DNA from: an uncultured bacterium
GTDB taxonomy: Bacteria > UBA8481
Length of the DNA stretch: 64,000 nucleotides
Reading direction: 5' to 3'
Assembly: GCA_964499705.1 (NCBI GenBank)
Contig: CAZCME010000010.1
Location: forward strand, 22,280 to 86,279
The notes beneath the pieces are model-generated. The model saw nothing but the letters and a program-made list of their open reading frames with translations. It had not been told where the DNA came from and did no database searches. A program made the translations under genes and the position numbers. Below, in pieces: positions 3,205 through 39,322 of the stretch; position 1 is the first letter of the stretch, and every line of letters begins with the position of its first letter.

Positions 3205-3224
3205 GAAATCGATGATAGCGGAGG

Positions 3225-4232: not shown

Positions 4233-4278
4233 AATATTTCAAATTGCGTGACGCCTAGGGTATGCTATCTTTGCAGAG

Positions 4279-7506: not shown

Positions 7507-7542
7507 GCCGGCGCGCCCGGACCGGGCCGGCCTGATCCGGGT

Positions 7543-11007: not shown

Positions 11008-11054
11008 AACCAGATTCCGCGGAATTCGATATTCGGATTCCGCGAATTCCTGTT

Positions 11055-14636: not shown

Positions 14637-14658
14637 ACGGGAAGGAACGCGGAAATTG

Positions 14659-16107
14659 ATGAAGAGGAGCGACCACATGAAATCGCGGAATCGATGCTGC
14701 GACCTGAACCCGTTTCCAGCCCTGGCATGCCTGATGCTCGTCGTGCTGTCCGCTCCTTCGCGCGCTTTCATCGGGCCGTCACCGGAACTGAACGCGCATG
14801 ACAAGGAAATCGCGCTTGAGATCGGCACGGGAACGCGGGATGTCGAGTTCAGCGGCACCGTGGGAGGATCGGTCATCCAGCTGGCCGAGCTCAAGATGGC
14901 GCAGACGTCGTACGATCTGCGTTTGTCCTACGGGCTGTCCCGCAACTTCACGCCTTATGCCCTGATCGGCATCGCCAAGGCCAATCTCGGCCTCATCAAT
15001 CTGTCCGCCGGTGGGGTGTCTCAGGGAGCCTTGAACATGAACGGGGAGCACGGGCTCATGTGGGGCGTCGGCGCCGAATACCAGCTGAGTCCGTCGTCGT
15101 TCGCTCCGGACCTCGCGATCGGCGTCTCCGGCGAATACCGTACGTCCACATCCGACATCAATGCCGGCGAGATTCAGCTGGACGAATTCCGCATGGCTCT
15201 GAAGGGATCCGGGAAATTCGACAAGGCGACGTTGTATGGTGGAATTCTCTATTCGAGTCTCAACGGGAATTACGCGGGCAACACGACGGCCGGAGTCAGG
15301 ACTGCCGGCCCGCTCGATTCCAAGAATAACATTGGTGTATTCGCGGGAGCCGATTATGCCTTCACGGAGAAGATCAACGGCCGGATGGAATTGGAACTCC
15401 TGACGGCATTCCAATTCAACCTGAGCATCGCCTACAAGATCGGCGGCCCGTGGCTGAATCGCGAGCGAACGGTCGCGGCGCCTCCCCCCGAGCCGGCTCA
15501 GCCCATGGCGCGCCGCAGGGAACCGGCGGCGGCGCGAGCGGAGGCGGCACCCGCGAATGAAGTGCGCGCGTGGACGCCGGAGGGCCGGGAAGTGCCCGTC
15601 GCCGAACCGCAGGCTCCTGCGCCGGTTCGGCGCGTGAAACCGGCCACGCCGCCGCCGGAAGTCACCACGGCTCCATTGCCCCCGGCATCGACGAGGGAAG
15701 TGCGGGCTACGCGGGACCGACCGTCGGATGCCGAGGAGCGCCGGGAGTTCACGGAAAAGTCTGCCGAGGAACTGGTGAAGATCGGCAGCGAATTGACGGA
15801 ATTGGGACGATACGACGAGGCGATTTCCCATTTCCGCCGCGCCGTGACCGCCGATCCCGGCAATTTCCGCGCGCGCTACAATCTAGCGACCGCGCAGTAT
15901 CTGAACCGCGATTTCGCCGCGGCGAAAGTTTCCTACGAGGAATCCATCAAGCTGATGCCGCGCGATGAGGAATCCCATCTCTTCCTGGGATTCTGTTATT
16001 ATCGGATGGGCCAGTTTGACGGCGCTGTTCGAGCCTGGCAGCGGGTTCTGGAGCTCAATCCGGAAAACGCGGTCGCGCTGAATAATCTGCAGGCGATGGG
16101 AAGATAA
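14659..16107 (+). CDS. Secreted protein: N-terminal OMP-like beta domain, Pro/Ala-rich linker, C-terminal TPR repeats
   Basis: Signal peptide MKSRNRCCDLNPFPALACLMLVVLSAPSRA. Alternating beta-strand pattern. A low-complexity PA-rich linker at about 15480-15700. TPR-like C-terminus (YNLATAQYLNRDFAAAKVSYEESIKL...). Confidence 0.5.
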   Translation: MKRSDHMKSRNRCCDLNPFPALACLMLVVLSAPSRAFIGPSPELNAHDKEIALEIGTGTRDVEFSGTVGGSVIQLAELKMAQTSYDLRLSYGLSRNFTPYALIGIAKANLGLINLSAGGVSQGALNMNGEHGLMWGVGAEYQLSPSSFAPDLAIGVSGEYRTSTSDINAGEIQLDEFRMALKGSGKFDKATLYGGILYSSLNGNYAGNTTAGVRTAGPLDSKNNIGVFAGADYAFTEKINGRMELELLTAFQFNLSIAYKIGGPWLNRERTVAAPPPEPAQPMARRREPAAARAEAAPANEVRAWTPEGREVPVAEPQAPAPVRRVKPATPPPEVTTAPLPPASTREVRATRDRPSDAEERREFTEKSAEELVKIGSELTELGRYDEAISHFRRAVTADPGNFRARYNLATAQYLNRDFAAAKVSYEESIKLMPRDEESHLFLGFCYYRMGQFDGAVRAWQRVLELNPENAVALNNLQAMGR

Positions 16108-16122
16108 GAAGGAGGGCTGAAC

Positions 16123-17460
16123 ATGTCACTGATGGAAAAAATGAGCGCCTTGAGAGGCGGAGGCGAGGCGGAGCAGAAGAAGGTCGATCTGCATGAAAAA
16201 ATCACGGATGCCATCGCACCGACGCTCGATGTGGATCTGCTGCGTTCTCCCGACCAGGCGAATCGCGACAGGATCATCCGCGAGAAAATCACCGAGGCCG
16301 CGCTCCAGATCACGACCCAGGAAGGAATCAATCTTTCCAAGCAGCAGTTCGAGTCGCTTGTTTCCGACGTGCTCGCCGGCATCGTCGGATTTGGCCCTCT
16401 GGAAAGGTTGCTGCGCGACAAGGAGATCAGCGAAATCATGACGAAGGGCGCCAAGTGCATCTTCGTCGAAAAGAAGGGTAAGGTCGTGAAGTCCGAAGTT
16501 ACGTTCAAGGACGAGGCGGAACTCCGCGACATCGTCGAGCGGATCATGAAGCCGCTTGGCCGCGTATGCGACGACCAGGTGCCCTACCAGGACGCGCGCC
16601 TCCCGGATGGCTCCCGCGTCAATGTCGTTATCCCCCCGCTGGCGATCGACGGCACGGCCCTGACCATTCGCAAGTTTTCGAAGAATCGACTGACGCACCA
16701 CGATCTCATCAAGTTCGGCGCGATGACGCCCGAGATGGCGGAGTTCCTCCGCGCCTGCGTCGAGGTCAGGTTGAATATCATCGTCTCCGGCGGTACCGGT
16801 TCCGGCAAGACGACGCTCCTGAATGTATTGTCCTCTTTCATTCCGGAGGACGAACGGACGGTGACGATCGAGGACGCCGCCGAGCTTTCTTTCGCGCAGG
16901 AGCATGTGATCCGGTTGGAGACGCGTCCCGCGGACTTCGAGGGCAAAGGCGCCATCACGATCCGCGACATGGTCAAGAACGCGCTCCGCATGCGCCCCGA
17001 CAGGATCGTCATCGGAGAGTGCCGCGGTCCGGAAGCCTTCGACATGCTGCAGGCGATGAACACCGGCCATGACGGTTCCATGTCGACGCTCCACTCCAAC
17101 GCGCCCCAGGACGCCATAGGCCGCATCGAAACGCTCGTGATGATGGCCGGATACGATCTCCCCGTGAAGGCAATCCGCAAGCAGATCTCCAGCGCCGTCA
17201 ACCTGATCATCCAGCAGTCGCGACTCGTCGATGGATCGAGGAAGGTCACGTACATCACGGAGGTCCAGGGGATGGAGGGAGAATCGATTCTCATGCAGGA
17301 TATTTTCATATTCGAGCAGGAGGGCATGGGCCCTGACGGCAAGCTCATCGGGAAACTGAAACCCACCGGACTCGTGCCGAAATTCTACGAGCGATTCAAG
17401 GCGGAAGGAGTCGCCATCGACCAGTCCATCTTCCATACGCCGGCCGACGGAAAAAAATAA
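16123..17460 (+). CDS. cpaF: CpaF/TadA-type secretion ATPase (type II/IV secretion NTPase, Flp pilus assembly)
   Basis: Walker A SGGTGSGKTTLLN. Asp box, and GECRGPEAFDMLQAMNTGHDGSMSTLH (His box). 445 aa. Confidence 0.85.
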   Translation: MSLMEKMSALRGGGEAEQKKVDLHEKITDAIAPTLDVDLLRSPDQANRDRIIREKITEAALQITTQEGINLSKQQFESLVSDVLAGIVGFGPLERLLRDKEISEIMTKGAKCIFVEKKGKVVKSEVTFKDEAELRDIVERIMKPLGRVCDDQVPYQDARLPDGSRVNVVIPPLAIDGTALTIRKFSKNRLTHHDLIKFGAMTPEMAEFLRACVEVRLNIIVSGGTGSGKTTLLNVLSSFIPEDERTVTIEDAAELSFAQEHVIRLETRPADFEGKGAITIRDMVKNALRMRPDRIVIGECRGPEAFDMLQAMNTGHDGSMSTLHSNAPQDAIGRIETLVMMAGYDLPVKAIRKQISSAVNLIIQQSRLVDGSRKVTYITEVQGMEGESILMQDIFIFEQEGMGPDGKLIGKLKPTGLVPKFYERFKAEGVAIDQSIFHTPADGKK

Positions 17461-19207: not shown

Positions 19208-22200
19208 TTGTCACGTCAAATGCTTCGGATTTTGAGATCTTCTTCATCCTGTTGTTTCTTTTTTCTTCTTTGCTTCGCTGATCCGTCCGCTGTATCCGGA
19301 TCGGTCAATCCTCCTGCTGCGCCCTCCAACCCGGCGTCGGTGGCGGATTCCAGGGAGGACAATTCGAGCGGAGGCATCGATGGTCTTTCTCAAAGTGAGA
19401 TTCAGGATCGTCTCCGGGAATTTCGGTCCCTGAATCCCGGCATCGTCGAAGCGCTCCTGGAACATCCTTCTCTCCTCAACGAAACAACCGTCGCCCTGGC
19501 CCTCGGGCTCGAACCATCCGATGTGCGCCGCGCGACGACGACGCGGTCGGTCACATACCGCGATCTCCTCGAAAATCCCGTCAGGCGTGTCGCCCGTGTT
19601 CTGTGGCGATCCGCGCATCCCAAGCCGTACGATCATCCCCAGGAAGCGGCCGCGCAGCGATTCGCCCAGTCGATCAATGAATTCGGCGTGATCCCGCATG
19701 GCGCGCTGATCGCCGCGCACCAGGAGCAGAAAGCGCTCCAGGCGCAAGCGCGCGCTTGGGCGCCGCGCGGATTCCAGGGCGCTCCGGAGGGACCGGAGGT
19801 CGCGGGAATCGATTCGATCTCCTGGCAGTTCGTGGGACCCGCGAACATCGGAGGCCGGGTCCGGTCCATCGTCATTCATCCCACCACGACGTCATCGATG
19901 TGGGCGGGGAGTGTCTCCGGGGGAATCTGGAAGACGGTCAACTCAGGCGAGACGTGGAGCGTGGTGAACGATTTCATGTCCAATGTCGCCGTCTCCACTC
20001 TTCTCATCGACACGACGAACGCGAACACGATGTATGCGGGAACGGGGGAGGGCTTCTACGGAGGGCACAGCATCCAGGGCGCCGGGGTATTCAAGTCCAC
20101 GGACGCTGGAGCGACATGGACGCAGCTGTCCGCGACGAACACGTCGAGCTGGTATTACGTCAACAGGCTGGCGCAATCTCCGGATGGAACCGTCATCCTG
20201 GCCGCGACGAGGTCGGGGATCTGGCGCACCACCAACGGGGGGACGAACTGGACCCAGTTGCTCGCCGACACGGATATCCTCGATGTGAAATTCGATCCGA
20301 CGAATGGAAATCGGGCGGCGGCCGGCGGTCGCTACGGCGATGCGTATTACTCGACGGATGCCGGCCAGAACTGGTCCAACGAAGCCGGGATTCCCAACAA
20401 CGCCAGTTTTCTTTCGCGCGTGGAACTGGCCTGGTCCGCCTCGGCATCGGGAACGCTGTACGCCGCCTACAATAACCAGGGCGTCACGGAAGGGGAGTTT
20501 TACCGGTCCACGGACGGCGGCCAGACTTACACGCGCCGGAACACGGGCGACACATCGAACTGGCTCGGGTCGCAGGGATGGTATGACAACATCATCTGGG
20601 TGGATCCGACGAACGCGGACACGGTCGTCGTCGGCGGCATCGATCTCTGGCGCTCCACGGACGGCGGCCAGACCTTCCAGAAGATCTCCATCTGGGAACA
20701 GAACCGAAACTCCGTTCACGCGGATCATCACTACATCGTCCACGATCCCGGATTCAACGGCACGGCGAACCGGCGCGTTTATCTTGGCAACGACGGAGGC
20801 GTTTACAAGACCGACAACATCTATACCGCGGTGGGCACGTCGGGTTTCCAGCCGCTTCTCAACAAGCTCGGCATCACGCAGTTTTACGGAGCCGCCGGGA
20901 ACGAGACGGCGAATATCTTCTGGGGCGGAGCGCAGGACAACGGCACGCTCCATTTCACGGGGACGGACAGCTGGGGAGAAGCCGTCGGCGGCGACGGCGG
21001 TTTCTGCGCCGCGGATCCCGTGGAGTCGGCATATCTGTACGGCGAATACACGTACCTCCAGATGTACCGCTCCACGAATTTCGGCGCTTCCGCCTCGGAT
21101 ATCTACAACGCGTCGGGTAACACCATCGCGGATGCGAATCAGAACAACGCTCTTTTCATCGCGCCGTTCCTGCTGGATCCGAATAACGCGAACACGATGT
21201 ACGGCGGCGCCGAGAGGCTTTGGCGGTCAACCAACGTCAAGGCCGGCACCCCGGACTGGTTTTCAGTCAAGGCCGTGGTCGCGGGAAATCCCAAGATCAG
21301 CGCGATCGCCGTCTCGCCCGGAGATCCGAGGGTCATCTGGGTCGGCTACGATGCCGGGGGCCGCGTCGAATATTCGAGCGACACCGGCGCCACATGGGTT
21401 CAGGTCGGAAACGGCACTCTTCCTTCGCGGTATGTTCAGCGCATCGTCATCGATCCGAACAGGCCGTCCCGCGTTCATGTCACCTTCGGCGGGTACGCGA
21501 TGGGAAACATCTGGCGCACGGAGGACACGGGCGCGACCTGGTACGACGTCAACACGAACGCCACCGTGAAGATTCCTTCCGTGCCGGTACGGGGATTCGC
21601 AGTCTGGGCCAGGAACAGCGATTCGATCTACGCGGGCACCGATATCGGCGTTTACGCTTCGACCGACAGCGGCAAAAACTGGTCGCCGACGAACGACGGC
21701 CCCTCGAATGTCTCCGTCGACGAGCTCTTCTGGCAGCGGACGGACACCTTGTATGCCGCCACTCACGGGCGCGGCCTGTGGCGCATCAACGTGGCGCGCG
21801 TCGTCCCGCCATCGGACACGGCGGCGCTCGGGCCGAACAAGTGGTACGTGAACGACGCGTCGACGACCGGCGACTCCTTCACGAGCGCGGCCGGCAGCAA
21901 CGGCAACAACGGGCTGACGATCGCGACGCCGAAGCTGACTCTTTCAGCCGTCATCCCGTTTCTCTCCGAGGGTGACACGGTCTACATCGACGCCGGGACT
22001 TTCACGCCTTCGGATACGGTCAGGATCGAGACGAATGCCGTCTGGATCCTCGGCAAGGATTCCATTTCCACCGTGATCGACTTTAATGATTCCTCGCAAT
22101 CCGGTCAGAAGTCGATATACGCGTCGGGGCGCAACAGGATCACGATTCGGGATCTCGCGGTAACGCGGGCCTATCACGGACTCTGGTTCAATAACGCCGA

Positions 22201-25030
22201 TACCTGCGTGATCGAGCGGGTACGCACGGATTCGCACAGCCAGGGCGGGATGAATTTCGAGAACGGATCGGACAGCAATCTCGTCGTCCATAGTCAGGCG
22301 ACCGCCACCGGCAATGGCGGCTTCCGATTCGTGACCGGAAGCGGGTACAATACACTGGCGGCGAATGTAGCGGCTTTCACCACGGGCAACGGCTTCCACT
22401 TGAATGCGTCGACCGGCAATACCTTGATCAACAACACGTTCTGGGGAAATGATGTCACGAACGACGGATTCAACCTCTCTGACACGAGCAATAACAATAC
22501 GCTCTTGAACAACCGCAGCGAGACCGGGCTCTATGGGTTCCTGATCAACAGATCCGCAGGCAACCTTCTGTCCGGAAATATCGCCATTGCCACCATGGGC
22601 GAAGGGTTTGAAGTCCTGAATGCCAGCCACAATAACGTACTGACGAATAATGTCGCGTCGCTCAGCCTCACTCCAGGTTTCGAAGTCTTCGCAAACAGCA
22701 ACGGAAATACATTTCTCAATAATCGTTCCACAAACGGCCGTTCTCACGGTTTCAGGGTCTTTTCGAGCAGCAACAACGTCTTTCGCCAGAACATGGCCGA
22801 TTCCAATCTCGGCTGGGGTTTCTACATCGACGGCGACTGCAGTGCCGACACTTTTCAGAAAAACGTCTATATCCCATCGCCCGCGCTTCCGGATTCCGCG
22901 CTCTTCGAGAGCACGTTCGCGCGGATGAACGTCGAACGGAACTGGTGGGGCTCCACGGATTCGGCCGCGATCAAGGCAAAATTCGCCGCCTTCGCGCGCG
23001 ATTCAGCCGTGTATATTCCCTATCGACTCGGCATCGTCGACACGACCGCCGGCGCGGACACTGTTGCTCCGCGAGCGCCCGACACGGTCGCGGCGGCGGT
23101 TTTATCGTCCAGCGCGATTCGCGTCTCCTGGTCGCCTGTGACGGTGAACGAGGAAGCATCGCCGTTCGCCGTGAGCCTGGCTCAGTACCGGATCCACAGG
23201 GCGCTCTCCGCGGATTCCGGCTCCTGGCCGCAGGTCGGCGTCGCCGGAGCGTCGGCGGTGTCATTCGACGATACTTCTCTCGCCGCCGGCGTGACGTACT
23301 ACTACCGGGTCACGGCTGTTGACTCGGCGACGCCCTTCGAGAACCAGAGTTTCTTCTCCGATTCGACCGGCTCCGCGATGACGCCGCCGGACACGTCGGG
23401 GCCGAATGCCTGGTATGTGAACGACACATCGACGACGGGAGACAGCTTCACTTCCTCCGTCGGAGACGATGCCAACAGCGGATTGTTCATCTCGACGCCG
23501 AAGCGCTCCCTGGCCGCGATCGATCATCTCCTCACGGCAGGAGACACGGTCTATGTCGATTCCGGATTCTACTACGAGGTCGAGACCGTGACGGTCGGCG
23601 TCAGCGGCGTTCTCATCCGGGGCGTGGATTCCTCCAGCTCGATCATCCGTTTCGACAGCAATTCCGTGCAGGCCTGTCGCGCGGTCCAGGTGTTGAACGC
23701 GACGGGAGTCACGATCCGCGATATTGCAGTGCTGAACGCATCGAAGGGAATATGGCTCAATAACGGCGACCAGGGATCGATCCAGCGCGTGAAGCTTTCT
23801 TCCAACGGCCGGGGGATCCATCTCCTGAATGCCGACACCAACTCGATCACGGACGCGTTCGCGTCGTCGTCTGGCACGATCGGGTTCTATCTGGTCACGA
23901 GCCATGGCAATACCATGACGGCGTGCGCCACGAGCTTCAGCACTTCGAGCGGAATCCAGATGGATACGTGTTTCGCCAACTCGGTGAGCGGATGCACGCT
24001 CGTGAGCGATCTGGAAGAGGCGCTGATCGTCCGGTGGGGAGGAAGAGTTACGATCACAGGGAACATTGTGAGCGGCTCTGCCTACGCGATCACGCTCGAA
24101 AACAGCTCGAACAACGTCGTCGAGCGCAACATCGCCGTTTCGAACCAGGATGGCATCTGGCTGGACACCGCGACGAATAATATCGTGCGGGGAAATCTGA
24201 GCGCTTCGAACACGCGGAGCGGCATCACGCTGCGAGGCGCGTCCACCGACAACTTCGTCTCTCAGAACCAGCTCTCGAATAACGGGTGGTACCAGATCAG
24301 CATCATTGACGCTGGCGCCGCCGACACTTTTCTTGCCAACAATATTCTCGTCTCAACGGGAAATCCGGACAGCGGCGTCTTCCTGGGATCGCGGAATCGG
24401 ATGAAGTTCGCGCGGAACTGGTGGGGCTCGGTCGACTCGGTCGCTATACGAGCTGATCTCGCGGGACTCGGTCGGGATTCCATCGACTACTCGCCGTTTC
24501 GTCTCACGATCGCCGATACCAACGTGGGCGCGGACTCGGTAGCGCCGGAAGCGCCGGCCGGCCTGACGGTCGACAGTCCGTACGCGCAGATCCGCATTTC
24601 CTGGGCGGCCGTCGCCGGGAACGAGGACGGGCTGGCGGGCGCGCCCGGCGTCGTGAAATACCTTGTCTATCGCTCGCGTCGCTCCGATACGTCCGTCTGG
24701 GGTGCGCCGGTGGGTGAAACCACGGCGACGTCATTTTCGGATACCTCTACCGCGCCGGACACGGACTATTTCTACCGGATCACGGCGCAGGACGGCGCGA
24801 GTCTGCCGAACCAGAGTTTCTATTCCTCGATCGTTTCGGGAAGATCGATTCGTGCGACGGGCGATTTCACGGGCGATTCCACGGTCACCCTGGCTGATTT
24901 CCGGTTGATCCAGGTTCGCTTCAAGACTCCGGGGCTGTACGATCCTCTATTCGACATCGGCAGGAACGGCGTTGACGGTGTGATTAATGAAGAGGACTTC
25001 CTGGAGCTGGCGAGGCGATACGGGCAGTAG
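19208..25030 (+). CDS. Giant secreted multi-domain protein (1940 aa): Asp-box (BNR) beta-propeller repeats, right-handed parallel beta-helix repeats, FN3-like domains, C-terminal dockerin-like module
   Basis: Signal-like N-terminus. Repeated SxDxGxTW Asp-box motifs (STDAGATWTQ, TTNGGTNWTQ, STDAGQNWSN, STDGGQTYT, STDGGQTFQ, SSDTGATWVQ, TEDTGATWYDV, STDSGKNWSP). Two blocks of Asn/Gly-rich beta-helix repeats. Three FN3-like modules ...YYYRVTAVD.... C-terminal GDFTGDSTVTLADFRLI...DIGRNGVDGVINEEDFLELARRYGQ resembles a two-repeat dockerin. Confidence 0.8.
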   Translation: MSRQMLRILRSSSSCCFFFLLCFADPSAVSGSVNPPAAPSNPASVADSREDNSSGGIDGLSQSEIQDRLREFRSLNPGIVEALLEHPSLLNETTVALALGLEPSDVRRATTTRSVTYRDLLENPVRRVARVLWRSAHPKPYDHPQEAAAQRFAQSINEFGVIPHGALIAAHQEQKALQAQARAWAPRGFQGAPEGPEVAGIDSISWQFVGPANIGGRVRSIVIHPTTTSSMWAGSVSGGIWKTVNSGETWSVVNDFMSNVAVSTLLIDTTNANTMYAGTGEGFYGGHSIQGAGVFKSTDAGATWTQLSATNTSSWYYVNRLAQSPDGTVILAATRSGIWRTTNGGTNWTQLLADTDILDVKFDPTNGNRAAAGGRYGDAYYSTDAGQNWSNEAGIPNNASFLSRVELAWSASASGTLYAAYNNQGVTEGEFYRSTDGGQTYTRRNTGDTSNWLGSQGWYDNIIWVDPTNADTVVVGGIDLWRSTDGGQTFQKISIWEQNRNSVHADHHYIVHDPGFNGTANRRVYLGNDGGVYKTDNIYTAVGTSGFQPLLNKLGITQFYGAAGNETANIFWGGAQDNGTLHFTGTDSWGEAVGGDGGFCAADPVESAYLYGEYTYLQMYRSTNFGASASDIYNASGNTIADANQNNALFIAPFLLDPNNANTMYGGAERLWRSTNVKAGTPDWFSVKAVVAGNPKISAIAVSPGDPRVIWVGYDAGGRVEYSSDTGATWVQVGNGTLPSRYVQRIVIDPNRPSRVHVTFGGYAMGNIWRTEDTGATWYDVNTNATVKIPSVPVRGFAVWARNSDSIYAGTDIGVYASTDSGKNWSPTNDGPSNVSVDELFWQRTDTLYAATHGRGLWRINVARVVPPSDTAALGPNKWYVNDASTTGDSFTSAAGSNGNNGLTIATPKLTLSAVIPFLSEGDTVYIDAGTFTPSDTVRIETNAVWILGKDSISTVIDFNDSSQSGQKSIYASGRNRITIRDLAVTRAYHGLWFNNADTCVIERVRTDSHSQGGMNFENGSDSNLVVHSQATATGNGGFRFVTGSGYNTLAANVAAFTTGNGFHLNASTGNTLINNTFWGNDVTNDGFNLSDTSNNNTLLNNRSETGLYGFLINRSAGNLLSGNIAIATMGEGFEVLNASHNNVLTNNVASLSLTPGFEVFANSNGNTFLNNRSTNGRSHGFRVFSSSNNVFRQNMADSNLGWGFYIDGDCSADTFQKNVYIPSPALPDSALFESTFARMNVERNWWGSTDSAAIKAKFAAFARDSAVYIPYRLGIVDTTAGADTVAPRAPDTVAAAVLSSSAIRVSWSPVTVNEEASPFAVSLAQYRIHRALSADSGSWPQVGVAGASAVSFDDTSLAAGVTYYYRVTAVDSATPFENQSFFSDSTGSAMTPPDTSGPNAWYVNDTSTTGDSFTSSVGDDANSGLFISTPKRSLAAIDHLLTAGDTVYVDSGFYYEVETVTVGVSGVLIRGVDSSSSIIRFDSNSVQACRAVQVLNATGVTIRDIAVLNASKGIWLNNGDQGSIQRVKLSSNGRGIHLLNADTNSITDAFASSSGTIGFYLVTSHGNTMTACATSFSTSSGIQMDTCFANSVSGCTLVSDLEEALIVRWGGRVTITGNIVSGSAYAITLENSSNNVVERNIAVSNQDGIWLDTATNNIVRGNLSASNTRSGITLRGASTDNFVSQNQLSNNGWYQISIIDAGAADTFLANNILVSTGNPDSGVFLGSRNRMKFARNWWGSVDSVAIRADLAGLGRDSIDYSPFRLTIADTNVGADSVAPEAPAGLTVDSPYAQIRISWAAVAGNEDGLAGAPGVVKYLVYRSRRSDTSVWGAPVGETTATSFSDTSTAPDTDYFYRITAQDGASLPNQSFYSSIVSGRSIRATGDFTGDSTVTLADFRLIQVRFKTPGLYDPLFDIGRNGVDGVINEEDFLELARRYGQ

Positions 25031-25104
25031 GAGGATTCTCCGTACGTTTTTACTCCGAATTCCCGCTCGACTCACCGGTTCGATTATCCCTATAATTCTC
25101 AGGT

Positions 25105-28100
25105 ATGATTCCGCCTGCCATGGCGCCAAGGTTTCTTCCCGTTCCGATGCGTTTTTTCCTCCTGTCCGCGATACTCTTCATTGCGCTTTCAGTTCCCTCG
25201 TGGTCCGCGCCGCTTCCTGATCATAAAAGCATCTCGAAGATCGCATGGAAGCATGGAGCCATCCACGCGGGCGATCGGTTTGCGGGACTGACGCGGGAAG
25301 AGTGGACGGAATACTTCGCCAGCCGGCCACGACAGATCCTGCCGGATTCCGCCACTCGCGACGTCGACGAAACGGTCGTGGCGCGCCGTCTTGGACTTGC
25401 TCCGAGCCTGGTGCGGAAGGTGCGGACGGAACGATCGGTGGATTATCGCAGGATGCTGGAATTTTCGCCTCCTCTCCTGGCGCGCGTTTTCTGGCGGACG
25501 CATCATCCCAAGCGGCCGGATCATCCCGGCGAAGCCGCCGCGTTCAGGGCGCTGCAGCAGCGGAGCGAGGACGGGCAGATCGTCGAGAACGGTCTCGCGA
25601 ACGCGGCCAGGCAGCTCGAGGAGATGCAGGAGAATGTCCGGGCCGGGATATCGCCGTCCTTCCCGGGAGATCCCGTGCCCGGAGAAGGCCCGGAGGTCGC
25701 GGGGATCGATTCGACGCGCTGGCAGGCCCTGGGTCCCGGAAATGTGCCCGGGCGAATTCGCTCCGCGATCATCTTTCCGGATTCGAACATCAAGGTGATC
25801 GGGAGTGTCGGTGGAGGAATTTTCCGGACGACGAACGGGGGGCAGAGCTGGACCGCCGTGAACGATTTTCTCGCCAATCTCGCCATCGGCTGCATGGCGC
25901 AAAGCCCCCTCCAGCGCGACACGATTTACGCGGGCACCGGAGAGGGCTTCTACAACTCGGATCGGATCCGGGGCGACGGCATCTTCAAGTCGACGGATTC
26001 GGGACAGACCTGGACCCAGCTTTCCGCGACCGCTTCGAACTCCAGTTATCGATATGTCAACCGAATTGCGATCGATCCCGGCAATGTCAACATCCTCCTG
26101 GCCGGAACGCAGACGGGAATATTCCGGTCGACGAACGCCGGGGCGAGCTGGAGCGCGACGGCGGGCGCAGGGGAGGCGATGGATGTCGACTTTCACCCCA
26201 ACAATGCGAGCTTCGCGGTGGCGAGCGGCCGGAACGGGAACACCTGGTACTCGACGGATGGCGGCCAGAACTGGACCGCCGCGACGGGAATCCCCTCCGA
26301 GGCGAACAACCGCGTGGAGGTCGCCTACGCGCCTTCCAACGGCGGCGTGGTCTATGCTTCCTGCCAGAGAAACAGCGGCGAGCTGTATCGCTCGACCGAC
26401 AGCGGAGTCACTTACTCTCTTCAGAATACCGGGTCCAGTTACCTCGGAAGCCAGGGCTGGTACGACAACTGCCTCTGGGTCGATCCCGTGAATCCGGATC
26501 ACGTGGCGACGGGAGGAATCGATGTCTGGCGCAGCACGAACGCGGGCGCCAACCTCACGCAGATCAGCGACTGGTCGCAGAATTCCTCGGGACTGTCCGC
26601 GCACGCGGATCACCACATTCTCCTGTCCCACCCGGATTACAACGGCACGACGAACCGGGAGTTCTACACGGGCAGCGACGGCGGGCTCGCCTTCACGAAC
26701 GACATAACGACCGTGGCGCAGACATCCGGGTGGACGCTCCTGCGGAACAACATCGTGACCACGCAGGCGTATGGGGGCGCGGGAAACCCGGCAGGGGTCT
26801 TCTGGCTGGGCACGCAGGACAACGGCACGCCCGCTTATTTCGGAGATTCCAATGCATGGACGCGCCATTCGTCCCGCAGCGGAGACGGAGGCCATTGCGC
26901 CGCGGATCAGCTCGATGCGAATTATCTCTACGGCGAGTACGTGTATCTGACGATCTACCGCAGTTCGAACGGGGGCGCCACCGCGACGGACATCTACTCC
27001 GGGATCACGGATGCCGACAACAGCGCGACGGCGTTCTTCATCGCGCCGTTCATCCTGGACCCGAACGATCAGGGCCGGATGTATGCCGGCGGCGTTCAAC
27101 TCTGGAGAACGAGCGATGTGAAGGCCACTCCGCCCACGTGGTCTTCAGTCAAGGCGTCGAACGGAAACAAGATCAGCGCGATCGCCGTGGCCCCCGGCAA
27201 TCCGAATGTCATTTGGGTCGCGACGTCCAACTCCACGATCACCGGAGCCAACGCCAGCGAGGTCTTCTACACGGCGAACGGGCTCGAGGTGTCTCCGACA
27301 TGGACGCAGGTGGACGGCAACGGTGTCACGCTTCCGAACCGCTATTGCAGCCGGATCGCGATCGATCCCCGGAATCCCGCTCACGTCTACGTGACGTTCG
27401 GCGGATATAATACTAACAATCTCTACGTCACGTCGGATACGGGCACGACATGGACGAACGTGAATGCGACGGCGAATCCCGCCCTGCCGACCGCGCCGAT
27501 CCGCACCGTCGTCTTCGGAAACTATTCCAGCGACTCGGTCTATGTCGGGACGGAAGTGGGGATTTTTGCCAGTGCGAACGCGGGCGCGGCCTGGTCGCCG
27601 TCGCAGGACGGGCCGGCCAATGTCTCCGTCGATCAGCTCTTCTGGGTCGGCGCGGATACGCTCCATGCGGCGACGCATGGTCGGGGGCTCTGGAGGATAT
27701 CCGTTCCGCGGCCGGATACGACGACGCCGCCTCCCATTGACACGACGGGGCCGAATGTCTGGTACGTGAACGATACCTCCACCACCGGGGATTCGTTCAC
27801 GTCCGGATTCGGCAGTGATGCCAACAGCGGTGTTTCGCGCACAGCTCCGAAGCGGACGATCGCAGCCGTTTGCGCCTTTCTCACGACAGGGGACACGGTC
27901 TACATCGACGCAGGGACGTTCGGGGAAACGATGGTCGCGGGATCCTGCACCGCGGTAGCGATTATCGATACGATGAACGTCACGCTCGTGGGTGTGGATT
28001 CGCTGGTGACGTTGCTCGATCCAGGGGATTCTTCAAGCGGATCCAACATACGAGGGATCTACGCCGATACGATTTCAGGTCTCACGATCCGGAACCTTCG

Positions 28101-31100
28101 GGTTTCAAACGCCCGCACCGGCATCGAGTGGTACAACGTCGATACTTCGACGATGGCGAGCGTGGATATGGTCCGCAACAGCGCCTATGGGCTATTGCTC
28201 TTCGGCGGCTCGGAGTCGATCCTCGTATCGACGTGCGGAGGTTCGAATAATGCGCAGGGAATCCGTATCCTGTCGAGTTCGCGGAATACGATTCGCGAGA
28301 ACGTCCTGGAAAGCGCCGCCGGCGCCGGCATTTCCAATGAGGGAAGCTCGAACAATGCGTTCATCGGGAACACGGCGCGGTTGAACAACGAGGAAGGCAT
28401 CTTTCTCACGGGGAGTTCGGGCAATTCCATTACCGGCAATGTCCTGGCGGCAAACGGCAGCGACGGCGTGTATCTCACATCGAATTCGAACGGCAACAGG
28501 ATCGAGGGGAACCATATTGCGGCCAACCTGCAGGGTATCCTGATCGACGGATCAAGCGGCAACGTCGTCGCTCAAAATGAGCTGAGCGCCAACACGACAT
28601 ACCAGATCCAACTGGGAATCGGCGCATCGGCGGACACAATCGAGCGGAACAACATAACGACATCCAGCGGAAAACCCGAAAGCGGCGTGCAGAACCAGAC
28701 GATCGCGAGATTCGATGCGACACGGAACTGGTGGGGGACGGCCGACTCCGCGACGATCCGGGCGCGAATCCGGGGTACGGGTCGGGATTCCGTAGTCTCC
28801 GTGCCCTTCCGGCTTGGTCGTGTCGATACGAGACCTGGTTTCGACACGCTGGCGCCGCGAGCGCCGGATACGGTCGCAGCGTCCGATCTTTCCGATACTT
28901 CCGTGCGCGTCACGTGGTCGACGGTCGGGTTGAATGAGGACGGATCGGCCGGAAACGGCGATCTTGCAGGATACCGTGTCTATCAGTCGTCTTCCCCCGA
29001 TTCGACGTCGTGGATTCTCCGGGGAACGGTGAGCACGGCGACGCGCACGTACGATGACTCGGGTCTGGCGCGGATGGCGACGTATTTCTACCGAGTGACG
29101 GCCTTCGATAACGCCTCGTTCGAGAATCAGTCGTTCTTCACTGACTCCATCATCGGCGTCGTTCCCGGCGCGATCGACTCGACAGGAGCGAATGTCTGGT
29201 ACGTGAACGACTCATCTACGAGCGGCGATTCTTTCACGTCGGCGGTCGGCCTTGTCGCCAATCACGGGCTGCTTCCTTCCGCGCCCAAACGCGGACTCGC
29301 CGGCGTCATCCCCTATCTCACCGCCGGGGACACCGTCTACATCGACGCAGGAACATTCCAGGACTCCAATCTTGTCCTCTCTGTTTCGGACGTGATCGTC
29401 GAAGGGAAGGATTCGCTCGCGACAATCGTGGACGCGAATTACGAAACGTGCTTCATCTTGCGCGGCGCTCATCGATCGATCTTCAGAAAAGTCCAGATCG
29501 TCAACGCCAATTATCCTGGCGGACTCGGCCAAGATCATGGAGCGGCGATACGGCTCGAGAATTCCGACAGCGTCGTCATTGCCTCGGACAGTTTCTTGCA
29601 GAACACCTGGGGAGTAAACCTCGCGCTCGGTTCCGATTCGGCCACCGTCACGAACTGCGTCTTCAATCCTCAGACACAGTTCGCGGTCTATGTCGAAAGC
29701 GGGCCTCAGGCCGTGATCACGGGAAATACGATGATATCGTTCGGCATCGGCATCGAAAATCGATCCGATTCCGGGATCGTTGCCGGGAACACAATGACGA
29801 ACACCGTGGTGAACGTCACGTCGTCCGATTCGATCAGGATTCTCGGTAATTCGTTCTCCAATGTCACGATTACTCTCACGACAGCGCAAAGGTGCGACAT
29901 CGAATCGAACACGATCACGACAGGCGGGATTGTTCTGAACGACGACGTGCTGCTTTGCCGGCTCAACGGAAATTCCGTGACCGCGGTCGGCGCCACATGT
30001 TTCGATATCGCCGGCGACACGAACACCCTCATTAATAATTTCGCCTTCGGGAGTGGCGTTTCCGGCCAGGGTTTCTGGCTGAAGACCGCAGCGGCAGGTA
30101 ACATCCTGACGAGCAACACGGCGTCGGCAAAAAGAAATTTCGGATATCTGGTGCAGGGCACGTCGAATATTCTCGACGCCAACTTGGCGGTGAGCTGCCA
30201 GGATGGCGGGTACCGGATCTCCGGCGACACGAACGTGCTCAATGCGAATACGGCGCGGACGATCACCGCCGGCGCCGGATTTGTCGTTGAAGGCAGGAAC
30301 AACGTCCTGCGAGGAAATCATGCGTCCGCGTGCAGCGACTCCGGCTTCCACCTCAACGGGGCGGTCGACAACATTCTCTCGGCGAATCATGCCGACTCCA
30401 ACCTGGGCTATGCGCTCGCGATCGTCGGATCGTCGAGCGGCAACACGGTCCGAAAGAACAGTTTCGTCACATCGCCGACGCGGCCCGATTCCGGTGTCCT
30501 CCTGGTTTCGGTGGCCGCGGTCGATCTGACGCGCTCATGGTGGAACACGACCGACAGCGCGTCCATCCGGAATCGTATCCGCGGCGCCGGCGTGGTGCTT
30601 GCCATGTACACGCCCTTCCGTTTCGGGGTTATCGATACGGGATACGGAGCCGACACGGTCGCGCCCGACTCGCCGGTGAATCTCATCGTGGATACGCCTG
30701 CGGGCCAGATAAGGATCTCCTGGACCGCGCCGAGCGTGAACGAGGGCGGAACCGGAGGCGCGACGGGAATCGCGAAGTATCACATCTATCGATCCCGCGC
30801 GGCGGACACGACGGACTGGATCGGTCCGATAGGGGAGACTACCGCGACGGTCTACTCCGATACGCGCATCGCGACGGATACGATCTATTACTATCGGGTG
30901 ACCGCCGAGGACAGCGCATCATATCCGAACCGCGGTTTCTACTCGGCGATCGTGAGCGGTTCGGTCCCGCGCGTTTTTGCGGATTTTTCGGGCGACTCCA
31001 CGGTCAATTCCGCGGACGTTCCCTTGATCCTCCCGCGGTACCGCCAGCCGGGCCTGTATAACTTAATCTACGACATCGGCAAAAACGGTGTGGACGGAGT

Positions 31101-31149
31101 GATCGACCACGAGGATTTTCTGGAACTGGGGAGACGCTACGGGCAGTAA
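25105..31149 (+). CDS. Giant secreted multi-domain protein (2014 aa), paralog of the preceding gene
   Basis: Same architecture and collinear conserved blocks: HHPKRPDHPGEAAAFRAL vs HPKPYDHPQEAAAQRF, GPEVAGIDS in both, Asp-box repeats, beta-helix repeats, FN3-like modules, and a near-identical dockerin-like tail ...DIGKNGVDGVIDHEDFLELGRRYGQ. Confidence 0.8.
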   Translation: MIPPAMAPRFLPVPMRFFLLSAILFIALSVPSWSAPLPDHKSISKIAWKHGAIHAGDRFAGLTREEWTEYFASRPRQILPDSATRDVDETVVARRLGLAPSLVRKVRTERSVDYRRMLEFSPPLLARVFWRTHHPKRPDHPGEAAAFRALQQRSEDGQIVENGLANAARQLEEMQENVRAGISPSFPGDPVPGEGPEVAGIDSTRWQALGPGNVPGRIRSAIIFPDSNIKVIGSVGGGIFRTTNGGQSWTAVNDFLANLAIGCMAQSPLQRDTIYAGTGEGFYNSDRIRGDGIFKSTDSGQTWTQLSATASNSSYRYVNRIAIDPGNVNILLAGTQTGIFRSTNAGASWSATAGAGEAMDVDFHPNNASFAVASGRNGNTWYSTDGGQNWTAATGIPSEANNRVEVAYAPSNGGVVYASCQRNSGELYRSTDSGVTYSLQNTGSSYLGSQGWYDNCLWVDPVNPDHVATGGIDVWRSTNAGANLTQISDWSQNSSGLSAHADHHILLSHPDYNGTTNREFYTGSDGGLAFTNDITTVAQTSGWTLLRNNIVTTQAYGGAGNPAGVFWLGTQDNGTPAYFGDSNAWTRHSSRSGDGGHCAADQLDANYLYGEYVYLTIYRSSNGGATATDIYSGITDADNSATAFFIAPFILDPNDQGRMYAGGVQLWRTSDVKATPPTWSSVKASNGNKISAIAVAPGNPNVIWVATSNSTITGANASEVFYTANGLEVSPTWTQVDGNGVTLPNRYCSRIAIDPRNPAHVYVTFGGYNTNNLYVTSDTGTTWTNVNATANPALPTAPIRTVVFGNYSSDSVYVGTEVGIFASANAGAAWSPSQDGPANVSVDQLFWVGADTLHAATHGRGLWRISVPRPDTTTPPPIDTTGPNVWYVNDTSTTGDSFTSGFGSDANSGVSRTAPKRTIAAVCAFLTTGDTVYIDAGTFGETMVAGSCTAVAIIDTMNVTLVGVDSLVTLLDPGDSSSGSNIRGIYADTISGLTIRNLRVSNARTGIEWYNVDTSTMASVDMVRNSAYGLLLFGGSESILVSTCGGSNNAQGIRILSSSRNTIRENVLESAAGAGISNEGSSNNAFIGNTARLNNEEGIFLTGSSGNSITGNVLAANGSDGVYLTSNSNGNRIEGNHIAANLQGILIDGSSGNVVAQNELSANTTYQIQLGIGASADTIERNNITTSSGKPESGVQNQTIARFDATRNWWGTADSATIRARIRGTGRDSVVSVPFRLGRVDTRPGFDTLAPRAPDTVAASDLSDTSVRVTWSTVGLNEDGSAGNGDLAGYRVYQSSSPDSTSWILRGTVSTATRTYDDSGLARMATYFYRVTAFDNASFENQSFFTDSIIGVVPGAIDSTGANVWYVNDSSTSGDSFTSAVGLVANHGLLPSAPKRGLAGVIPYLTAGDTVYIDAGTFQDSNLVLSVSDVIVEGKDSLATIVDANYETCFILRGAHRSIFRKVQIVNANYPGGLGQDHGAAIRLENSDSVVIASDSFLQNTWGVNLALGSDSATVTNCVFNPQTQFAVYVESGPQAVITGNTMISFGIGIENRSDSGIVAGNTMTNTVVNVTSSDSIRILGNSFSNVTITLTTAQRCDIESNTITTGGIVLNDDVLLCRLNGNSVTAVGATCFDIAGDTNTLINNFAFGSGVSGQGFWLKTAAAGNILTSNTASAKRNFGYLVQGTSNILDANLAVSCQDGGYRISGDTNVLNANTARTITAGAGFVVEGRNNVLRGNHASACSDSGFHLNGAVDNILSANHADSNLGYALAIVGSSSGNTVRKNSFVTSPTRPDSGVLLVSVAAVDLTRSWWNTTDSASIRNRIRGAGVVLAMYTPFRFGVIDTGYGADTVAPDSPVNLIVDTPAGQIRISWTAPSVNEGGTGGATGIAKYHIYRSRAADTTDWIGPIGETTATVYSDTRIATDTIYYYRVTAEDSASYPNRGFYSAIVSGSVPRVFADFSGDSTVNSADVPLILPRYRQPGLYNLIYDIGKNGVDGVIDHEDFLELGRRYGQ

Positions 31150-34120: not shown

Positions 34121-35713
34121 TTACCGCGCAGCCGTGTCCGGAGCGGTTTCCATCTCCGGTATATTCCATGCCTGGTTGGCGACGATCGTTGCGAAAGTCT
34201 GGGGACCGGCGACTCCGTCGATGGGAAGCTTTTCCGCGGTTTGGAACTGGCGGACGGCCTTGACAGTCGTGGGGCCGTAGTTGCCGTTCACGACGCCTTT
34301 GAAATAGCGGAGTTTATACAGAGCATTCTGGAGCTTCGTGACATCCTCGCCGCTGGAACCCGCGTAATAGTTGCGGGTAGGAAAATCGGCGGGCATGATG
34401 AAGGAGGCTGGATAACTCCGATCCAGGGCGATCTGCGACCATGGAATCATCTCCTCCGCGGCGCCATGAACCACGATGGCGGAATCCGGGATGCCTTCCA
34501 CAGGCCGGACGACGGCCAGTTCCTCCCCGCCGATTCCCTTCAGGCGCACCATCGTACGGAGCCCGATCGCGGCGAGCACTTCCGGGCGGCAGGCGATCTG
34601 GATCCACTTTCTGTCGTTCGACGCGGCCAGCATGTCGGGGCGGATGGTCTCCAGCGCCGACGCGGTGAATCCGAGCTCGACTCCGTTTTCCTGAAAGAAT
34701 TTCCGCAGCATTTCGCCTTCGCCCGGTTTCTGCTCGATCACCTCACGGACGATCTGCTGTTGCGTGATGACGGGCGGGGGAGCCGACTCCGGCGCTTCCT
34801 CGCGGCCCGGGCGCTGCAGGAACATCCAGAGGACCAGCAGCAGCACGGCCCAGGCGCCGAGTGCAGGCATGAGTTTCACGAGGCGGACGCCAGTGGAGGG
34901 AGCGGGCGGCAGGATGTCGGCGAATTCCTTCTCGGCCGATTCCACGTGAACGCGTTTCACAACCTGGGAATCATCTCGGCCTGCCGCGCGCACGCTTCCG
35001 TCCGCCAGAATGTTGATGACGCGGGGAATGCCTCCGCTTTTCGCATGGATGCGTTTCACTCCGGCAGGGGAAAAAGACACGGGGACGGCGGCGCCGGCAT
35101 TGGCGAGCCGATGCGTGAGATACTCGCCTGTTTCCTTCAGCTCCAGGGGCTTCAGGTGGCGGTGAACCGCCACGCGGCTCCGAAGCTGAACCATTTCCGG
35201 GCGCGCCAGAATCTCGCGGAGCGGATCCTGGCCGAAGAGAATGATCTGGACGAGCTTCTCGCTCTCGGTCTCCAGGTTCGAAATCATCCGCAGGAGCTCG
35301 AAGGATTCGAAAGAAAGGTGCTGCGCCTCATCGATGAAAATGGCAGTGTGGCGTTTCTCGGAATACATCCGCATCAGGTGCTCATAGAGCGCATCGATGA
35401 GGCTCTTCCGGTCCTTCGCTTCGCCGGATGCAATGCCGAGATCGTCCGCGATGGCGCGCATGAGCCCGTCGGGATCGAGGCCGGTGTTCAGGATCGCGGC
35501 GGTATTGAGGTTTTCGTATTCGGCGGAGAGGAAGCTCCGCATCAGAGTCGTCTTTCCCGCTCCGACTTCACCGGTCACGACAATGAATCCCTTGCCGGTC
35601 ATGATGCCCCGTGTCAGGGCTTCCCAGGCTTCCTCGAATTGCTTGTGGCGATAGACCATCCTCGGATCGGGAGTGACGCCGAAAGGATTGTATTCGAAGC
35701 CGAAATCGATCAT
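34121..35713 (-). CDS. ExeA/GspA-like AAA ATPase with a C-terminal peptidoglycan-binding domain
   Basis: Walker A GEVGAGKTTLMRSF. A central TM segment. A C-terminal PG_binding_1-like motif DVTKLQNALYKLRYFKGVVNGNYGPTTVKAVRQFQ...GVAGPQTF. Confidence 0.75.
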   Translation of the reverse strand: MIDFGFEYNPFGVTPDPRMVYRHKQFEEAWEALTRGIMTGKGFIVVTGEVGAGKTTLMRSFLSAEYENLNTAAILNTGLDPDGLMRAIADDLGIASGEAKDRKSLIDALYEHLMRMYSEKRHTAIFIDEAQHLSFESFELLRMISNLETESEKLVQIILFGQDPLREILARPEMVQLRSRVAVHRHLKPLELKETGEYLTHRLANAGAAVPVSFSPAGVKRIHAKSGGIPRVINILADGSVRAAGRDDSQVVKRVHVESAEKEFADILPPAPSTGVRLVKLMPALGAWAVLLLVLWMFLQRPGREEAPESAPPPVITQQQIVREVIEQKPGEGEMLRKFFQENGVELGFTASALETIRPDMLAASNDRKWIQIACRPEVLAAIGLRTMVRLKGIGGEELAVVRPVEGIPDSAIVVHGAAEEMIPWSQIALDRSYPASFIMPADFPTRNYYAGSSGEDVTKLQNALYKLRYFKGVVNGNYGPTTVKAVRQFQTAEKLPIDGVAGPQTFATIVANQAWNIPEMETAPDTAAR

Positions 35714-35740
35714 TTTCCAGAGAATCTTTCCCGCCGCGCT

Positions 35741-36640: not shown

Positions 36641-37161
36641 TTCGCCGCGTCGTCCTCCACGGAAAGCAGGAACTCCGTGCGGTGGGCTTCGAGGGGCGCG
36701 CAGCTCATGTTTGGAGAATGGACCGTGATGAGTCCCGTGTCGCCGTCGGAACCGGAAGCGGCCGACTCGAGGATGAAATAAGCCGAGCCTTCCTTGAGGA
36801 AGAGATCGAGCCCGGCGCGTGGACCGCGCTGGGCGGACAGAAACGACATGGCCGAAGCGGGTCCCAGCAGAACTTCCGCATAGCCCTCCACCGAAATGAC
36901 GGCGCGCGTCGTGGGTGACGTGCGTACGATTTCTCCGAGGGAGAGAACTTCGTCCTCCGAGGCGTCGCGGATTCCCAGAGGCGACGTCACCACCGCGTCA
37001 CCGTCGAGACGCGCGATGCGGATGACCAGGTCAGCGCTCTCAAAGGGCTCCACGCGAACGGGCGCGGAAACCGTCTGTTTCGGCGTCATCCTGTATAGAA
37101 AGAAGATCTGCGCCGCAATGAGGAGCAGAAGCAGGGCCGGTGTAAGAAGCTTCCGGATCAC
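36637..37161 (-). CDS. Hypothetical membrane-anchored protein
   Basis: The GTG start at 37159-37161 lies 4 nt after the Wzc-like gene's stop. An N-terminal TM (LLLLLIAAQIFFLY). The ORF-track start at 37236 would overlap the Wzc-like gene by 70 nt. Confidence 0.4.
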   Translation of the reverse strand: MIRKLLTPALLLLLIAAQIFFLYRMTPKQTVSAPVRVEPFESADLVIRIARLDGDAVVTSPLGIRDASEDEVLSLGEIVRTSPTTRAVISVEGYAEVLLGPASAMSFLSAQRGPRAGLDLFLKEGSAYFILESAASGSDGDTGLITVHSPNMSCAPLEAHRTEFLLSVEDDAAK

Positions 37162-37165
37162 GGGT

Positions 37166-39301: not shown

Positions 39302-39322
39302 GGAGCGAGTGATTCAGGACGC

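Follow-up and report, generated by a model that had tools for sequence, protein, structure and literature searches.

Domain architecture of a tandem pair of approximately 2,000-residue modular proteins from Candidatus Hydrogenedentota, with a GH74-like head and a divergent dockerin-type tail

Introduction

Two adjacent genes of an uncultured bacterium, each encoding a modular protein of approximately 2,000 residues, raise the question of what such very long proteins are assembled from, and of which role the assembly could play. The genes, named here ORF1 and ORF2 (for open reading frame), lie within a stretch of 64,000 nucleotides that is referred to below as the window (NCBI GenBank assembly GCA_964499705.1, contig CAZCME010000010.1, positions 22,280 to 86,279 of the forward strand). 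The analysis presented here shows that they are two old tandem paralogs from Candidatus Hydrogenedentota, and suggests that each product would be a Sec-exported protein consisting of a head, a stalk and an anchor. The head, predicted to comprise a helical N-domain and a GH74-like double propeller that is conserved across many phyla and is devoid of the first GH74 catalytic Asp, would most likely bind a glycan or another polymer in the cleft between its propellers, or else act on one by a chemistry other than that of GH74. The stalk would be formed by two cassettes, each composed of a right-handed beta-helix of the CASH/PbH1 type followed by an FN3 module, and the anchor by a divergent dockerin-type module of 59 residues, probably a Ca-dependent tether to a putative cohesin-like or cell-surface partner. 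A conserved N-terminal head, a variable and repetitive middle and a C-terminal module of the attachment type form an arrangement that is typical of surface display, with the functional domain kept at a distance from the cell, which favors the idea of tethering at the surface. Taken together, it appears probable that the two are surface-tethered proteins that bind or process glycans, and that they do so by means of a site in the inter-propeller cleft that differs from that of GH74.

The gene pair and its history

The two reading frames, taken from the list of ORFs of the window, are located on the same strand and separated by 74 nt; the signal peptides were read straight from the sequence.

19208..25030, plus strand: ORF1, modular protein predicted to be secreted, 1940 aa
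19220..19300, plus strand: predicted Sec signal peptide of ORF1 (MLRILRSSSSCCFFFLLCFADPSAVSG)
25105..31149, plus strand: ORF2, 2014 aa
25147..25206, plus strand: predicted signal peptide of ORF2 (MRFFLLSAILFIALSVPSWSA)

The probable start of ORF1 is the ATG at 19220, from which the protein begins with MLRILRSSSSCCFFFLLCF..., and the ATG at 25147 is possibly the true start of ORF2. The two proteins are collinear from end to end, with 41% identity (1294 bits, BLASTP), and the tandem pair of paralogs of roughly 2,000 residues that had been described in an earlier, sequence-only reading of this DNA is borne out. At the DNA level, the best match between the two genes does not exceed approximately 85% over approximately 50 nt, and this absence of long near-identical stretches indicates that the duplication is old and real, ruling out recent gene conversion, an assembly artefact or a recent repeat. 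Pfam recognizes in both ORFs propeller repeats of the Sortilin-Vps10/BNR type, two Beta_helix/NosD blocks and fn3, which, together with the pairwise alignment, agrees with the inventory of modules proposed earlier (Asp-box propeller, two beta-helix blocks and FN3). Each ORF is thus laid out as a signal peptide, a helical N-domain, Asp-box propellers, two cassettes of beta-helix plus FN3, and a tail of 59 residues.

Pairwise alignment of the paralogs places their divergence mainly in the beta-helix blocks, which are 31-36% identical in every full-length pairing; the N-terminal regions are kept at 47%, the propellers at 50%, the first and second FN3 modules at 52% and 59%, and the tails at 66%, the highest value of all modules. 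The C-terminal segment had been claimed to be both shared and almost identical; it is indeed present in both proteins over 59 residues, but 66% identity does not correspond to the latter description. Diversifying selection on the pair, suggested in the same reading, is not supported; at 41% protein identity, synonymous sites are saturated. The second beta-helix of ORF2 is approximately 110 aa longer than that of ORF1. In addition, the two cassettes within one protein are less alike than the matching cassettes of ORF1 and ORF2, which indicates that the cassette was duplicated before the gene.

Residues 1-1966 of ORF2 are matched at 100% identity by P0001, which NCBI lists as 'MAG: NosD domain-containing protein, partial [Candidatus Hydrogenedentota bacterium]', and residues 418-1940 of ORF1 are identical to a second public partial protein (P0121). 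The public Hydrogenedentota contig that carries both entries measures 10,545 nt and corresponds exactly to the 10,544 nt at positions 20459-31002 of the window. It begins inside ORF1, at residue 418, and ends inside ORF2, at residue 1966, without the ORF2 tail, indicating that both paralogs were interrupted by breaks in the public assembly; only in this window were the two proteins seen at full length, and likewise the tail of ORF2.

A syntenic locus is present on a metagenome contig of a related organism (JGI 3300072686; locus L004, positions 1-9120), with the same flanks as those of the pair: a Sir2-family gene upstream, and a phosphoglucomutase gene followed by a TPR/Peptidase_MA gene downstream. 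Between them lies one gene only, encoding a protein of 1417 aa (P0002) with the same head, a single beta-helix plus FN3 cassette and the same tail. The contrast between this one-gene, one-cassette locus and the pair in the window shows that the locus is dynamic between lineages, both in gene number and in cassette number. The identity of P0002 is higher with ORF1 (50%) than with ORF2 (44%), values which suggest that the duplication may be older than the species split, with one copy having been lost later.

A sigma-70-like promoter match (TCGACT, an 18-nt spacer and TATAAT; 10/12 positions) is located at 25067-25096, inside the 74-nt gap between the paralogs, with 9 nt between its end and the first ATG of ORF2. 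Promoter and terminator scans of the region gave numbers of matches at chance level.

The head

The head is formed by the following regions.

19301..19807, plus strand: N-terminal region of ORF1, predicted helical from the model of its ORF2 homolog, 47% identical to its ORF2 counterpart and family-conserved
19808..21793, plus strand: Asp-box double propeller of ORF1, predicted GH74-like fold, nine Asp-boxes, with invariant HADHH, QGWYDN, QDNG, GDGG and GEY
25207..25719, plus strand: N-terminal helical domain of ORF2, eight helices predicted in the AlphaFold2 model
25720..27702, plus strand: double Asp-box propeller of ORF2, predicted GH74-like fold, eight Asp-boxes

The count of eight to nine Asp-boxes given earlier held with a relaxed pattern, which detected nine in the propeller region of ORF1 and eight in that of ORF2, compared with approximately 0.6 in shuffled sequence. 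The helical domain of ORF2 has no Pfam family match, and the N-terminal region of ORF1 holds, directly before the propellers, the family-conserved segment P(K)PYDHPQEAAAQRF... An AlphaFold2 model of residues 35-880 of ORF2, built with 40 homologs (pLDDT 84, pTM 0.81), displays eight N-terminal helices followed by an all-beta propeller structure. When this model was compared with the PDB by Foldseek, ranks 1-25 were all occupied by GH74 xyloglucanases and OXG-RCBH (E 1e-27 to 1e-23), with target-normalised TM-scores of 0.60-0.69 and 16-18% identity over approximately 760-830 aligned columns. The profile of the head family also retrieved GH74 chains from the PDB (E 5e-18), sortilin appearing at approximately 1e-4. 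On the strength of the model and of the profile, the head is assigned to a GH74-like fold.

GH74 xyloglucanases and OXG-RCBH (for example 1SQJ, 2CN3 and 6P2M) are the classic tandem seven-bladed Asp-box propellers. The match of the head to this tandem fold comes from the Foldseek comparison; the head shares with these enzymes the homologous first-blade motif GGxIxxIxxHP...GG, and its eight to nine Asp-boxes compare with the 4+5 of GH74 enzymes (PMC2716378). It differs from them in its low identity, in its extra N-terminal helical domain, in an invariant set of motifs of its own (below) and at the first catalytic position. In a profile alignment, the first catalytic Asp of GH74 (D35 of OXG-RCBH, in T-D-I-G-G) is aligned with the Val of the family motif G-S-V-x-G-G (Val235 of ORF2), a residue shared by at least 90% of 40 family members. 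With regard to the second catalytic Asp (D465 of OXG-RCBH, in D-x-G-G), the family has an invariant N-D-G-G whose Asp is one residue out of register, in a region that HMMER did not align to GH74. The replacement of the first catalytic Asp by a conserved Val indicates that the proteins are not canonical GH74 hydrolases, and this activity was rejected on these grounds. The suggestion that the proteins serve in carbohydrate binding or degradation was hence upheld in part: the folds fit, both in the GH74-like propellers and in beta-helices related to NosD, AlgG and PL6, but hydrolysis is unsupported, with Val in place of Asp in the head and no DPHD motif in the beta-helices.

Sortilin and its Vps10 domain offer a second point of comparison, given that Pfam assigns Sortilin-Vps10 (PF15902) to the head at 82 and 77 bits, above cut-off, and that the best single-sequence PDB match of the head is another Asp-box propeller protein, the dispase autolysis-inducing protein (DAIP; E 6e-11). 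These matches span only a few Asp-box blades, however, with approximately 110 residues per Vps10 stretch, and GH74 is far ahead of sortilin in both fold and profile searches. Sortilin/Vps10 proteins are built as a single ten-bladed propeller followed by 10CC modules. The head has no 10CC domains. A Vps10 identity was therefore rejected, the Pfam label reflecting shared Asp-box blades and not a Vps10 domain.

Homologs of the head number 1,911 proteins at E <= 1e-10. In each of the 120 best matches the alignment extends over at least the N-terminal 36-43% of ORF2, with an identity of 45-54% in this region in nearly all cases; Chloroflexota, Acidobacteriota, Verrucomicrobiota, Kangiellaceae and Hydrogenedentota are among their named sources. 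These relatives invariably carry the head at the N-terminus, followed by varied C-termini (PKD, Ig, Calx-beta, DUF11, CARDB, P-domain and LysM), which in some cases include canonical dockerin ends, as in P0064 (Pfam PF00404) and P0003 (GDVNRDGRINIQD...GDIDGDGDSDRTD). Among 40 aligned members, approximately 20 polar residues are invariant, distributed over H-x-D-x-H, GTGEG, QGWYDN, QDNG, GDGG, GEY and HGRG, a pattern that points to a conserved ligand site or active site. It is of note that the H-x-D-x-H motif (approximately residues 500-504 of ORF2, near window positions 26602-26616) occurs as SAHADHH in most members and as GIHPDQH in others.

The stalk

The middle of each protein is occupied by two cassettes.

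21833..23047, plus strand: right-handed parallel beta-helix 1 of ORF1 (Pfam Beta_helix/NosD, alignment, and PDB profile matches to NosD, AlgG and PL6)
23048..23383, plus strand: FN3 module 1 of ORF1 (Pfam fn3 24.8 bits, cut-off 25; 52% identical to FN3-1 of ORF2)
23402..24532, plus strand: beta-helix 2 of ORF1 (Pfam and alignment)
24533..24853, plus strand: FN3-like module 2 of ORF1 (39% identical to FN3-1, 59% to FN3-2 of ORF2)
27751..28833, plus strand: beta-helix 1 of ORF2 (Pfam and alignment)
28834..29178, plus strand: FN3 module 1 of ORF2 (Pfam fn3 31.9 bits, above the 25-bit cut-off)
29185..30660, plus strand: beta-helix 2 of ORF2 (Pfam and alignment)
30661..30969, plus strand: FN3-like module 2 of ORF2 (identity to FN3-1; weak Ig_RIMBP2 match)

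The second FN3 of each protein has no Pfam match, and was assigned by its 38-39% identity to the first (E approximately 1e-17). The scores of the four beta-helix blocks on Pfam Beta_helix/NosD (PF13229 and PF05048) range from 63 to 91 bits, well above the cut-offs of 24-26, and TIGR03804 para_beta_helix repeats are also present. When the four blocks were combined into a profile, its PDB matches included NosD (E 5e-8), the alginate C5-epimerase AlgG (1e-6) and a PL6 lyase (0.012), which identifies the blocks as beta-helices of the CASH/PbH1 type. With NosD (7O0Y), AlgG (4OZZ) and PL6 lyases they share PbH1 repeats and the N-terminal cap '...PxxTLxxAxxxLxxGDTVYIxxGTF'; they differ in the start of each block, WYVND(T/S)STxGDSFT, in its end, RNWWGxxDSxxI+...P(F/Y)RLG, and in their repetition as cassettes with FN3. 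Beta-helix 1 of ORF1, for instance, starts with WYVNDASTTGDSFTS and ends with '..RNWWGS..PYRLG'. Stand-alone versions of the beta-helix, FN3 and tail cassette are found in five further proteins (P0122, P0123, P0124, P0177 and P0208).

Two functions known for this type of fold, those of NosD and of AlgG, were not retained. On the NosD model (TIGR04247) the proteins reach 59 and 53 bits, against a cut-off of 300, and no nos genes are found among the neighbours; the NCBI name 'NosD domain-containing' reflects a generic beta-helix only. An epimerase activity of the AlgG type was likewise rejected, the beta-helices being devoid of the DPHD motif.

The tail

Both proteins end in the same type of module.

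24854..25027, plus strand: C-terminal divergent dockerin-type module of ORF1 (GDFTGDSTV...DIGRNGVDGVINEEDFLELARRYGQ)
30970..31146, plus strand: C-terminal divergent dockerin-type module of ORF2 (ADFSGDSTV...DIGKNGVDGVIDHEDFLELGRRYGQ)

The module occurs in no other ORF of the window. When the ORF1 tail was isolated, it aligned with positions 2-54 of the 57 of Dockerin_1 (PF00404; E 0.0045); whole-protein Pfam scans of ORF1 and ORF2 gave no Dockerin_1 match. The best PDB sequence match of the tail is a dockerin, 2y3n_B (E 0.014). An exhaustive HMMER search of 1.84 billion representative proteins with a three-sequence profile yielded 104 hits. In approximately 10 clusters the extreme C-terminus is formed by this same subtype, mostly on proteins with beta-helices and FN3; one SusE/Ig-like protein and a GH42-like one have it as well. 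They are followed in the ranking of the profile (E 1e-13 to 1e-12) by proteins with multiple Dockerin_1 modules confirmed by Pfam (E 1e-19 to 1e-36), and when ten tails were compared by hhalign with ten canonical modules of dockerins, the probability was 97.4% (E 1.2e-11, 55 columns). Quicker homology searches, performed either with the tail alignment or with residues 1501-1940 of ORF1, had come back empty because of a word-index limit, and a scan of GTDB genomes for the tail recovered two loci only, both from 'binchicken' metagenome-assembled genomes.

The resemblance to dockerins, whether cellulosomal (types I and II) or found outside cellulosomes, extends from the length of approximately 60 residues and the extreme C-terminal position to the two loop-helix segments: the AlphaFold2 model of the tail predicts two helices (14-21 and 47-57), each preceded by a loop. 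In dockerins, Asp or Asn residues at positions 1, 3, 5, 9 and 12 of either loop coordinate Ca. The first loop of the tail, D-F-[T/S]-G-D-S-T-V-x-x-A-D, follows the dockerin-like scheme D-x-[T/S/D]-G-D-x-x-V-x-x-x-D, with acidic residues at positions 1, 5 and 12 and Thr or Ser at position 3 (Asp in P0002). The second, D-I-G-[x-N-G]-x-D-G-x-I-[D/N]-x-E-D, has positions 1, 5, 9 and 12 in place and ends as in dockerins (D-G-x-I-[D/N]-x-E-D-[F/L]), but has Gly at position 3 and an insertion of three residues (DIG-xNG-xDG). The tail is further set apart by a signature of its own, 'PRY+xPxxYDxxYDIG+NG' with 'ELGRRYG', by its rarity, by the lack of a known cohesin partner, and by a host phylum for which no cellulosome has been described. 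The term 'dockerin-like' used in the sequence-only reading hence stands at the level of the superfamily, on the basis of profile retrieval, hhalign and 2y3n_B, but the module falls below the Pfam threshold and its second loop is atypical.

The same reading had named a C-terminal domain of the type IX secretion system (T9SS) as an alternative, and the segment could in principle be such a domain or another classical sorting signal (Por_Secre_tail, PEP-CTERM or LPXTG). Apart from the C-terminal position, nothing agrees with this: no sorting-domain match was obtained in NCBIfam (E <= 1, including TIGR04183) or in Pfam (E <= 10), the module has 59 residues and two predicted helices where a beta-sandwich of 80-100 residues would be required, and the '...RRYGQ' end of the proteins has neither a hydrophobic segment nor a PEP or LPXTG motif. 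These signals are effectively refuted, and their probability is negligible. Judged by its sequence, the tail is a divergent and rare module of the dockerin type and not a T9SS C-terminal domain.

Tethering, partners and genomic context

The proposal that the pair is tethered at the surface and handles glycans has to be weighed against a number of observations. The isolated tails score 17.6 bits (ORF1) and 14.9 bits (ORF2) on Dockerin_1, where the cut-off is 22.9; Gly at position 3 and the three-residue insertion make binding of Ca at the second loop uncertain. The model of the tail is of only moderate confidence (pLDDT 69), and although seven of its nine top Foldseek matches are dockerins, none is significant (E 0.6-6, TM approximately 0.55). 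No cohesin was found among the approximately 45 ORFs of the window, nor beside the tail-bearing or related genes on four other contigs (L001, L002, L003 and L004), and no glycan-utilisation genes flank the pair. Furthermore, Hydrogenedentota are presumably diderm, and a Sec-exported protein of 2,000 residues would have to cross the outer membrane as well. Lastly, the head is devoid of the first GH74 catalytic Asp. Anchoring through a cohesin partner would thus be an extrapolation from the tail, cohesins having been looked for in the window and in the neighbourhoods of relatives.

In a different explanation of the tail, it would not be an anchor but a terminal, Ca-binding stabiliser of the EF-hand type, the proteins being soluble exoproteins or forming a self-associating, S-layer-like coat. 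For many dockerin-like modules of bacteria without cellulosomes, no cohesin partner is known, and here too none was found in the window or beside relatives; the tail also gives a weak match to EF-hand_1. Nevertheless, it is always located at the extreme C-terminus of proteins that are otherwise different (beta-helix, SusE/Ig-like and GH42-like), and it is the most conserved module between the paralogs, two traits that tags for sorting or attachment typically show. The stabiliser is considered rather unlikely.

At the opposite extreme, the proteins could be catalytic subunits of a cellulosome-like complex, namely active xyloglucanases or glucanases of the GH74 type and beta-helix lyases, bound to a cohesin scaffoldin through true dockerins. 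The fold of the head, the relationship of the beta-helices to AlgG and PL6 and that of the tail to dockerins would all be in keeping with such a complex, and in a biogas survey a part in polysaccharide degradation was predicted for all Hydrogenedentes metagenome-assembled genomes (PMC7038595). The conserved Val at the position of D35, the lack of a clear equivalent of the second catalytic Asp (NDGG for DxGG) and of a DPHD motif, the housekeeping neighbours and the failure to find a cohesin nearby speak against it, and it is considered unlikely.

Most genes around the pair have housekeeping roles (DAHP synthase, a TadA/CpaF-like ATPase, Sir2, phosphoglucomutase and a TPR-peptidase). An exopolysaccharide (EPS) export cluster is located 3-10 kb downstream, on the opposite strand. 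It has to be considered whether the two proteins bind or modify exopolysaccharide made by the cell itself, in association with this cluster. AlgG follows NosD among the PDB matches of the beta-helix profile (E 1e-6); the gene after ORF2 encodes a phosphoglucomutase/phosphomannomutase, a linkage that is kept at the syntenic locus; and the cluster includes a Wza-like pepcterm_export protein, a BY-kinase and a pepcterm_ATPase-like protein. However, the EPS genes are encoded on the other strand and are not shown to be syntenic by the short contig of the related organism, the beta-helices do not have the AlgG catalytic motif, and other carriers of the head or the tail are found in unrelated neighbourhoods. 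Involvement in exopolysaccharide handling is therefore held to be unlikely, and the surface-tethered, glycan-binding or glycan-processing model continues to be preferred.

The cluster itself (34121-40864, minus strand) encodes an ExeA-like AAA ATPase with a peptidoglycan-binding domain, whose best NCBIfam match is the XrtA/PEP-CTERM system-associated ATPase, two ORFs with no family match, a BY-kinase/Wzc-like protein and a Wza-like export protein (best match pepcterm_export); all of these family scores are below the equivalog cut-offs. It is adjoined at 41265-43321 (minus strand) by two adjacent radical SAM genes, one of which has a SPASM domain, and which may be a pair for peptide or cofactor maturation. 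Just upstream of ORF1, at 14575-17460 (plus strand), a protein with an outer-membrane beta-barrel and TPR is followed by a secretion ATPase of the TadA/CpaF family (TIGR03819, 320 bits, cut-off 373); the two may belong to a Tad-pilus or secretion system.

Other genes of the window are also of note. Two ORFs of approximately 500 aa each (54431-55921 and 55785-57371; region 54431-57371, plus strand), both with DUF4139 as best Pfam match, look like another tandem pair of paralogs. An ORF of 738 aa at 52203-54419 (minus strand) has an adenosine deaminase domain only at residues 389-726, with no Pfam match for the N-terminal 388 residues. At 9443-11152 (minus strand), an ORF of 569 aa carries a squalene/phytoene synthase domain at residues 299-551, preceded either by an N-terminal extension of approximately 300 aa with no family match or by a start that was called too far upstream.

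Conclusions

Every module of the two proteins belongs to a known superfamily, and the pair represents a fairly ordinary type of modular surface protein; dockerin-like ends are a well-known feature of secreted modular proteins that are not part of cellulosomes. What is new is a widely conserved family of heads with the GH74 fold and without its first catalytic Asp, as well as an insertion-bearing subtype of dockerin that is missed by the Pfam threshold. In the literature, nothing was found that links Hydrogenedentes with dockerins beyond generic surveys, and nothing under 'GH74-like'. A bolder version of the model can be conceived, in which the head would be a large cross-phylum family of enzymes that has given up the catalytic Asp of GH74 in favor of another active site, made up of the invariant H-x-D-x-H, Glu, Gln and Asp residues, and which in Hydrogenedentota would be displayed by the new dockerin subtype through a partner other than a classical cohesin; this is regarded as speculative and unlikely.

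If the surface-tethered model is right, the pair illustrates how very long surface proteins are assembled from standard parts in an uncultured phylum. Two targets emerge as by-products: the GH74-fold family, which is 45-54% identical across phyla and is annotated only as 'Sortilin/PSII assembly factor-like', and the rare dockerin subtype below the Pfam cut-off, which could mark a lineage-specific attachment system. Neither alters current concepts, but with both in hand many metagenomic proteins would be better annotated.

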